Below, one piece after another: positions 32,224-35,243 of a DNA stretch of 64,000 nucleotides. This DNA is from Escherichia coli (lineage in GTDB: Bacteria; Pseudomonadota; Gammaproteobacteria; Enterobacterales; Enterobacteriaceae): assembly GCF_024223415.1 (NCBI RefSeq), contig NZ_CP100500.1. One strand, 5' to 3'. The first letter of the stretch is position 1. Every line of letters begins with the position of its first letter. Both the position numbers and the translations under genes were made by a program. Below the pieces are notes generated by a model. The model made no database searches and had not been told where the DNA came from. It worked only from the letters and a program-made list of their open reading frames with translations.

Positions 32224-33522
32224 ATGGCTGAAAGTACTGTAACGGCAGACAGCAAACTGACAAGTAGTGATACACGTCGCCGCATTTGGGCGATTGTGGG
32301 GGCCTCTTCAGGTAATCTGGTCGAGTGGTTCGATTTCTATGTCTACTCGTTCTGTTCACTCTACTTTGCCCACATCTTCTTCCCTTCCGGGAACACGACG
32401 ACTCAACTACTACAAACAGCAGGTGTTTTTGCTGCGGGATTCCTGATGCGCCCAATAGGCGGTTGGCTATTTGGCCGCATAGCCGATAAACATGGTCGCA
32501 AAAAATCGATGCTGCTATCGGTGTGTATGATGTGTTTCGGCTCACTGGTAATCGCCTGTTTGCCTGGTTATGAAACAATCGGTACGTGGGCTCCGGCATT
32601 ATTGCTTCTCGCGCGTTTATTTCAGGGATTATCCGTTGGCGGAGAATATGGCACCAGCGCCACCTATATGAGTGAAGTTGCCGTTGAAGGGCGTAAAGGT
32701 TTTTACGCATCATTTCAGTATGTGACGTTGATCGGCGGACAACTGCTAGCCCTACTGGTTGTCGTGGTTTTACAACACACCATGGAAGACGCTGCACTCA
32801 GAGAGTGGGGATGGCGTATTCCTTTCGCGTTAGGAGCTGTGTTAGCTGTTGTGGCGTTGTGGTTACGTCGTCAGTTAGATGAAACTTCGCAACAAGAAAC
32901 GCGCGCTTTAAAAGAAGCTGGATCTCTGAAAGGATTATGGCGCAATCGCCGTGCATTCATCATGGTTCTCGGTTTTACCGCTGCGGGCTCCCTTTGTTTC
33001 TATACCTTCACCACTTATATGCAGAAGTATCTGGTAAATACTGCGGGAATGCATGCCAACGTGGCGAGTGGCATTATGACTGCCGCATTGTTTGTATTCA
33101 TGCTTATTCAACCACTCATTGGCGCGCTGTCGGATAAGATTGGTCGCCGTACCTCAATGTTATGTTTCGGTTCGCTGGCAGCGATTTTTACCGTTCCTAT
33201 TCTCTCAGCATTGCAAAACGTTTCCTCGCCTTATGCCGCTTTTGGTCTGGTGATGTGTGCCCTGCTGATAGTGAGTTTTTATACATCAATCAGTGGAATA
33301 CTGAAGGCTGAGATGTTCCCGGCACAGGTTCGCGCATTAGGCGTTGGTCTGTCATATGCGGTCGCTAATGCTATATTTGGTGGTTCGGCGGAGTACGTAG
33401 CGTTGTCGCTGAAATCAATAGGAATGGAAACAGCCTTCTTCTGGTATGTGACCTTGATGGCCGTGGTGGCGTTTCTGGTTTCTTTGATGCTACATCGCAA
33501 AGGGAAGGGGATGCGTCTTTAG
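32224..33522 (+). CDS. kgtP: Alpha-ketoglutarate permease (MFS transporter)
   Basis: [41 protein letters not shown]..., 432 aa from the internal ATG; the track ORF is extended 34 codons. Confidence 0.95.
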
Positions 33523-33842
33523 TGACGGGTCAGTTGCCAGACGGTATAGCCGGTGCTTGCACCGGCGACATCCCAGGCCAAATCCTTCCAGCTCCAGCCG
33601 CTCCCTTCGGGGCGGCTATCCCAAAGCTCTTTTGACGCCCCCAAACTGACAGAGAACATCAATCCAAACATGGCACTGCGATCCCGGCTCATCCCCTGAT
33701 GCTGTGAATATTCATTTCCGGCGGCGGAAAGCATCGCCGAGGCGATAAAGTGTTGAGCTTTATCCTGCCCGCTCCAGCTATCGTTAGCCATATGGCTGCA
33801 TCCAGAAAGTAACAATAGCGAACAGACAAAAAGAATACGCAA
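33519..33842 (-). CDS. yfiM: Lipoprotein YfiM
   Basis: TTG start at 33842, 7 nt after GGAGG, giving (M)[20 protein letters not shown]... (107 aa); the track ORF starts at another TTG 7 codons upstream. Confidence 0.8.
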
Positions 33843-33887
33843 AACGTGGCCTCCAAAAAACAAACCCCGTACAGGACGGGGTTGTGA

Positions 33888-35243
33888 TTACAGGATGCGG
33901 CTAATTAATCGGTCGATGCGGATACGGCGCAAACGGCGGATGAGTTTACGAACCTTCACCGGATAATCGGCAATACTTTGCAGATCGCGATAGTGCTTAA
34001 CGATGGTGGTATGCTCGCGGATCAGCTCCAGTTCTTTCTCTCGCTGTGGCGCAAGCTCCAGTTGCGGATCGTGGATCAAAATGGCGTTTTCCAGATCCAG
34101 ACGCCAGGCGCGCGGGTTCAGGTTATTACCGGTGATCAACATCCACTTATCATCAACCCACATCCCTTTCAGGTGATAGGTGTTGTCGTCATCTTTCCAT
34201 AACCGAACCACTAACTGGTCAGTATTGACGTAATACTGCAAACGGCTCAGGAAACGACGCAGATTGATCTCATAGAGATAAGGCAATGCGCCAATTATCT
34301 TGAAAGGTTCATCTTCCGGAATGTAGAAGTCGTTCGCGGTTTTATCACCAACAATAATTTCGACCTTTTTCCCTTCGCGCAGCAACTGGATAATATTGCG
34401 CACAAGGATTGCTGGCAGGTTGAAGTATGGCGTACAGATGGTTAGTTTCTGCTCGGCACAAGGCATAAGATGGAAAATGGTCTTGTTCAACAGACTCGAT
34501 TTCCCCAGCCCCACTAGCGGCGTTACGGAAAGCTGATCGTTGTCGGCATCGCCCTGGAAATGATAAGCGGCATCACGCAGCTCCTGGCGGAACAGACGAA
34601 TATCATTCTTGATTTCCGGGCTTTTTGGCCGATTAACATCATCCAGACGATTAACGCCGCGGCCATTCATAATATTCTGTGTAACCCATTCAAACATAAT
34701 GTCTGACATCTTACGGTTACGGATAAGATGATAACGGTCGTAGCGATATTTATCGTGCTGATGCAGGTAAACATCGTTCAGGCTGGCACCGCTATAAAGT
34801 ACGCTATCGTCGATGATAAAGCCTTTAAAGTGCAGAACGCCAAGGGCTTCACGGGTATTGATTGGAACGCCATAAACCGGAACATCTACGCCCGGATTTT
34901 CCTGCGCCATGCGGCAGTACCAGTCAGCGTTAGTGTTAGATGCCGCAGCGCCAATGCGTCCACGTTGTGCACGATGCCAGTCGACCAGCACCCGCACATC
35001 CAGTTCCGGACGCTGCCTTTTAGCTTCATACAACGCGTTCAGAATGCCTTTGCCACCGTCATCCTGTTCGAGATACAGGGCGACAATGCAAATGCGCTGC
35101 TTCGCGCTGGCTATTTTTTCCAGCAGCGTCTCCCGGAAGTCGGCGGGAGCGTAAAAGAAATCGACATCATCAACTGATTGAGAAATCTTGGGTAGTTGGG
35201 CAAGGTGTTGTTGATGTTTATTACGCTTAAATTTTGACAACAT
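33888..35243 (-). CDS. pssA: CDP-diacylglycerol--serine O-phosphatidyltransferase (phosphatidylserine synthase)
   Basis: MLSKFKRNKHQQHLAQLPKISQ..., 451 aa with two PLD-type HKD motifs; ATG at 35243 (the track begins at the preceding GTG). Confidence 0.95.
   Translation of the reverse strand: MLSKFKRNKHQQHLAQLPKISQSVDDVDFFYAPADFRETLLEKIASAKQRICIVALYLEQDDGGKGILNALYEAKRQRPELDVRVLVDWHRAQRGRIGAAASNTNADWYCRMAQENPGVDVPVYGVPINTREALGVLHFKGFIIDDSVLYSGASLNDVYLHQHDKYRYDRYHLIRNRKMSDIMFEWVTQNIMNGRGVNRLDDVNRPKSPEIKNDIRLFRQELRDAAYHFQGDADNDQLSVTPLVGLGKSSLLNKTIFHLMPCAEQKLTICTPYFNLPAILVRNIIQLLREGKKVEIIVGDKTANDFYIPEDEPFKIIGALPYLYEINLRRFLSRLQYYVNTDQLVVRLWKDDDNTYHLKGMWVDDKWMLITGNNLNPRAWRLDLENAILIHDPQLELAPQREKELELIREHTTIVKHYRDLQSIADYPVKVRKLIRRLRRIRIDRLISRIL

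Follow-up and report, generated by a model that had tools for sequence, protein, structure and literature searches.

The window, that is, the whole stretch of 64,000 nucleotides of Escherichia coli DNA analysed here, carries yfiM on the minus strand (33519..33842, 107 codons plus stop), a gene recognised by annotation, by the NCBIfam family NF008028 and by the Pfam domain DUF2279. It lies between pssA (phosphatidylserine synthase), the upstream gene on the same strand (33888..35243), and the convergent kgtP on the plus strand (32224..33522), both of them annotated and with Pfam domains in their proteins (PLD in pssA, MFS in kgtP). The assignment of the window to E. coli is borne out by a 601-nt region query, which matches 5425 of 5426 complete genomes of the species, many at 100% identity. 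Reading along the minus strand, the pssA stop TAA (33890-33888) is followed by an intrinsic terminator, identified by a terminator scan and by folding, with the hairpin AACCCCGTcctgtACGGGGTT (33863..33883) and the T-tract TGTTTTTT (33855..33862), the latter seen in the sequence and in Term-seq data. Immediately afterwards come a Shine-Dalgarno (SD) sequence GGAGG (33850..33854), a spacer of 7 nt, CCACGTT (33849-33843), and the initiation codon TTG (33840..33842), codon 1 of yfiM, read as fMet and backed by sequence, annotation, ribosome profiling and orthologues. The yfiM frame closes at a TAA (33521-33519). At the other end of pssA, near window position 35243, K-12 has a small ORF of 13 codons, pssL (b4782, 2722702-2722743), which overlaps the pssA start.

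The pssA stop (33888-33890) is in frame with the yfiM start (33840-33842), 48 nt apart, so that it is the pssA stop that limits the mechanical open reading frame. In its maximal form (33519-33863) it opens not at TTG 33842 but at another TTG, 33863, the start-type codon nearest to the in-frame stop and thus the one that a mechanical ORF finder picks. From the pssA stop (33890-33888) to the yfiM lipobox Cys, just three codons of the types ATG, GTG and TTG are in frame, and all of them are TTG (33863, 33842 and 33815, the last being Leu10). The original prediction was right in holding that there is no in-frame ATG 5' of the lipobox, since the first one is Met18 at 33791, 3' of the Cys. After TTG 33842 the codons run CGT ATT CTT TTT GTC TGT TCG CTA TTG TTA CTT TCT GGA TGC, so that residues 1-14 make up the signal peptide coding region (33801..33842), ending in the lipobox L12-S13-G14-C15 (33798..33809), where LSGC fits the pattern [LVI][ASTVI][GAS]C and Cys15 is encoded by TGC (33800-33798). 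Arg2 in a short n-region, a hydrophobic h-region and the LSGC lipobox are the features of a type II signal peptide, and the n-region with Arg, the hydrophobic core and the lipobox are common to bacterial type II signal peptides and the predicted YfiM precursor. The position of GGAGG 7 nt before TTG 33842, as first proposed, holds base for base, and the codon does directly precede a signal peptide with a lipobox.

The arrangement of GGAGG, spacer and TTG is uninformative alone, given that the window has 9 matches to GGAGG-N5-9-TTG where chance predicts 8.4, and the support for the start comes from context, comparison and published data. The predicted SD duplex with the 16S 3' end ACCUCCUUA amounts to -9.3 kcal/mol for TTG 33842, compared to -5.6 for TTG 33863, whose pairing bases are part of the terminator stem, and -3.1 kcal/mol for ATG 33791. 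The initiation region (33790-33862) is not more structured than shuffled controls (z = +1.0). Weak structure is usual at real start sites. We also considered sequestration of the SD, as in a 121-nt fold GGAGG pairs with the CUUUC of the Leu-Ser lipobox codons, and rejected it, the larger fold being marginal (z = -1.8) and the initiation region itself having z = +1.0.

The position of the start is conserved. We compared 80 orthologous loci from other species, one per species and from more than 20 genera of Enterobacteriaceae, and all 80 have a start codon 14 or 15 codons ahead of the lipobox Cys (ATG in 57, GTG in 18, TTG in 5). GTG is used in Salmonella and most Citrobacter, among others, all five TTG cases are Escherichia, and in the nucleotide alignment TTG, GTG and ATG share one column, followed by an invariant CG. 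The lipobox Cys is likewise invariant, in the context LTGC (36 species), LSGC (33), ISGC (4) or others (7). Escherichia and most Citrobacter retain GGAGG. Just 5' of the start the variation is not in triplets: the T-tract ranges from 4 to 8, the spacer from the T-run to the start from 10 to 17 nt, and a 2-nt indel sits beside the TTG. Judging from these alignments, the DNA directly upstream of the start column behaves as non-coding. E. coli sensu stricto carries a TT insertion at 33843-33844 compared to E. albertii, E. whittamii and two other Escherichia species, so that 7 nt instead of 5 separate its SD from the start. The TTG of E. albertii is immediately preceded by an ATG in the same frame, and from this sequence the codon used in E. 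albertii may differ by one from that of E. coli. In 4591 of 5425 E. coli genomes the 66 nt centred on the start are the same, and the commonest variant seen downstream of it, the one inspected, has the synonymous TTA in place of TTG at Leu10. An ATG or GTG start allele in an otherwise identical 66-mer was found in 0 E. coli genomes, a count to which alleles with a second difference are invisible. The same comparison bears on initiation at a rare non-canonical codon nearby, such as ATT 33836 (Ile3), which shares the upstream GGAGG. Its spacing from GGAGG would be 13 nt, residue 3 varies among species (I, V, L, F, T, C and others) so that there is no conserved ATT, and a product starting there would be without Arg2, which gives the n-region its positive charge, all of which makes such a start barely conceivable.

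The TTG start is the one in current reference annotations. In a RefSeq genome that is 100% identical here, the PGAP coding sequence of yfiM maps to window positions 33842..33519 (WP_001300818.1, 'YfiM family lipoprotein'). In K-12 MG1655, yfiM (b2586, NP_417081.2, 2724128..2724451) has ttg as its first codon, preceded by the same ggaggccacgtt, and is the same gene without any difference in protein, start codon, SD or the neighbours pssA and kgtP. The equivalog NF008028 scores 194.8 bits against a cutoff of 117 and aligns residues 1-105 of the 107-residue form to model positions 1-105 of 106, and DUF2279 (PF10043) covers residues 24-100 with 39.3 bits against a gathering threshold of 28.6. The only correction to be made to the original prediction is that this start is not a new proposal; it was published well over a decade ago. 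The CoBaltDB paper (PMC2850352, 2010) describes how the MG1655 YfiM start was moved by adding 17 residues, by which the protein becomes a predicted lipoprotein, and credits the change to Riley et al. (2006), whereas Nakahigashi et al. (2016; PMC4909307) place the start at the ATG for the U00096.2 ('2006') record and at the TTG for U00096.3 (2014), so that the two sources disagree on its date. The reference annotations are thus already right and nothing needs changing, and what the locus mainly demonstrates is that a non-ATG start can be recovered from sequence alone. The choice is of consequence for the predicted product, an exported lipoprotein of 107 residues or a cytoplasmic fragment of 90, and it mattered historically for inventories of E. 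coli lipoproteins.

Published experimental backing for the TTG start exists, albeit weak. In the tetracycline-inhibited ribosome profiling (TetRP) of Nakahigashi et al. (2016), yfiM is entry 42 of Table S2, with the site at 2722150 (U00096.2), equivalent to 2724128 (U00096.3), at a TTG codon, the same as in the 2014 annotation and shifted by -51 nt, i.e., 51 nt upstream of the '2006' start. The signal in three replicates was 0/16.7/2.3 at the TTG versus 0/0/0 at the old ATG; it is weak, and zero in one of the three replicates (Nakahigashi et al., 2016). The same work describes ybeZ and yliA (Table S2) and ftsH (text), in which, as in yfiM, a UUG lies upstream of the former AUG and the arrest signal is found at the UUG and not at the AUG, although that of yfiM is much weaker and yfiM is not among the sites tested with lacZ fusions. 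The supplements of TRAINSPOTTER (deformylation-assisted N-terminomics) contain no yfiM entry.

These data weigh directly on translation solely or additionally from the Met18 ATG (33789..33791), which would yield a 90-residue cytoplasmic protein devoid of the signal peptide. Being the first in-frame ATG, this codon was the earlier K-12 annotation, 90-residue forms are still predicted by some gene callers (P0110, P0121), and an ATG is kept at the position in 70 of the 80 species. In the other 10, however, the position reads ACG, CTG, CAT, ATA, GTT or ACT, the SD is weak, the TetRP signal is nil, and the 17 codons before Met18 keep a signal peptide and its invariant lipobox Cys across the species, a pattern that untranslated DNA would not preserve. 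We regard initiation at Met18 as very unlikely.

Upstream of the start, the pssA terminator has a folding energy of -12.5 kcal/mol (z = -2.6), and a hairpin with a T-run precedes the yfiM start in 78 of the 80 species loci, one of the other two (L029) having only 6 nt of upstream sequence. Adams et al. (2021; PMC7815308, supplementary file 2) list a 'primary' pssA Term-seq 3' end at K-12 2724116, which corresponds to window position 33854, bordering the T-tract and 12 nt short of the TTG. The ratio of RNA coverage downstream/upstream of this end was 30/179 without bicyclomycin and 46/90 with it (Adams et al., 2021). Transcripts of pssA that end at the terminator are consequently without the yfiM SD. 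A sigma-70 scan found no minus-strand promoter in 33300-34300, including the last 400 nt of pssA, a weak negative, and Rfam gave no match in 33300-34100 at E up to 1. The yfiM mRNA that is translated probably comes only from the minority of transcripts that pass the terminator, in keeping with the weakness of the TetRP signal.

The terminator also bears on the upstream in-frame TTG (33861..33863), initiation at which would give a 114-residue precursor. It is the codon favoured by a mechanical ORF call, as mentioned above, and E. coli and E. whittamii both have it in frame. It falls, though, within the pssA terminator (3' arm of the stem and T-run), without an SD at a usable distance, and terminated transcripts end 3' of it but without the rest of yfiM. 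In three sister Escherichia (sp. E1V33, MOD1-EC7003 and the SCPM representative) it is out of frame, owing to a 2-nt deletion or a 1-nt change in the T-tract. Moreover, NF008028 aligns only from residue 9 of the 114-residue form, leaving the extra residues unaligned, and the TetRP table lists no second initiation candidate for yfiM (Nakahigashi et al., 2016). Translation from TTG 33863 is, on this evidence, extremely improbable.

Overall, it is highly probable that E. coli yfiM is translated from the UUG at window position 33842, the codon originally predicted, on which the RefSeq/PGAP and K-12 annotations, the TetRP site and the start codons of 80/80 species loci agree. Direct or cited support is provided by the sequence, the annotation, the ribosome arrest at the UUG, the conservation of the start codon and the 3' end at the terminator. 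The sequence of events would be as follows. The SD and the start would be present only on transcripts that read through the pssA terminator, which appear to be the only source of yfiM mRNA, and since they are limited to these transcripts low yfiM expression is expected. On such an mRNA, GGAGG would position the 30S subunit at the UUG 7 nt downstream, in a weakly structured initiation region, and the product would be a 107-residue precursor, residues 1-14 of which would act as a type II signal peptide ending in the lipobox LSGC. Cys15 would then be lipidated and become the mature N-terminus by way of Sec, Lgt, LspA and Lnt, the standard bacterial lipoprotein pathway, and cleavage by LspA would be followed by sorting to the outer membrane directed by the Ser at +2. 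In E. coli, according to the +2 rule, Ser at this position predicts outer-membrane sorting. The yfiM papers found by our literature search contain no experimental report of YfiM lipidation or of globomycin-sensitive processing.

A more speculative idea is that terminator, SD and UUG form a selected two-layer throttle that holds YfiM well below PssA. Its basis is, on the one hand, that RNA downstream of the conserved terminator is about one sixth of that upstream and rises with the Rho inhibitor bicyclomycin and, on the other, that in Escherichia the start has gone from ATG or GTG to the weaker TTG, with the E. coli TT insertion taking the spacing from 5 to 7 nt. We consider it doubtful; if it were true, terminator read-through might be regulated.

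Regarding its family, YfiM has been placed in the Lipocone superfamily, which has a four-helix core with a conserved His (H2), Glu (H3) and Asp (H4), and is proposed to exchange the serine head group of phosphatidylserine (Burroughs, Nicastro and Aravind, 2025). The same authors describe a conserved operon consisting of a thioredoxin, a DTW enzyme, a PatZ-like protein, PssA and YfiM-1 (Burroughs, Nicastro and Aravind, 2025), which the order patZ, pssA, yfiM of our window matches. The invariant YfiM residues H31, E72, D75, D87 and D91 appear to fit the Lipocone His/Glu/Asp pattern. In the AlphaFold model the signal peptide helix comprises residues 2-18, with three helices left in the mature part. 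Just before the conserved W-G-x-DK-x-x-HF motif, distant relatives (32-60% identity) have a lipobox in some cases and a signal peptidase I type signal in others; being at the same place in these relatives, the N-terminal export signal is a feature of the whole family. Because relatives swap the two types of signal there, the first helix of YfiM is probably a cleaved export signal and not a Lipocone core helix. The possibility that the signal peptide stays as a permanent first Lipocone helix was considered and appears unlikely, the export signals being interchangeable among relatives at this range of identity. Here too the start codon matters, in this case for tests of the proposed link between YfiM and phosphatidylserine metabolism.

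Rare natural lesions affect yfiM in some E. coli genomes. Strain C012 (L083, NZ_CP119577.1) has lost the lipobox (LLSGCSHM) through an in-frame deletion of 21 nt and has a T-tract 2 nt shorter, and in strain SCU-306 (L085, NZ_CP053231.1) the gene is split by an IS3-family insertion. These two sequences suggest that yfiM may be dispensable in some strains.

At its 3' end, yfiM overlaps the convergent kgtP by 4 nt (33519-33522), with the kgtP stop TAG at 33520-33522 on the plus strand and the yfiM stop TAA at 33521-33519 on the minus strand. Abundant published Term-seq 3' ends on the kgtP strand, K-12 2724397 and 2724366, correspond to window positions 33573 and 33604, antisense to yfiM and 51 and 82 nt into that gene, and the one at 33573 is located 6 nt past the hairpin GCCGGTGcttgCACCGGC (33550-33567). 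The yfiM-kgtP pair is an excludon candidate in ExcludonFinder.
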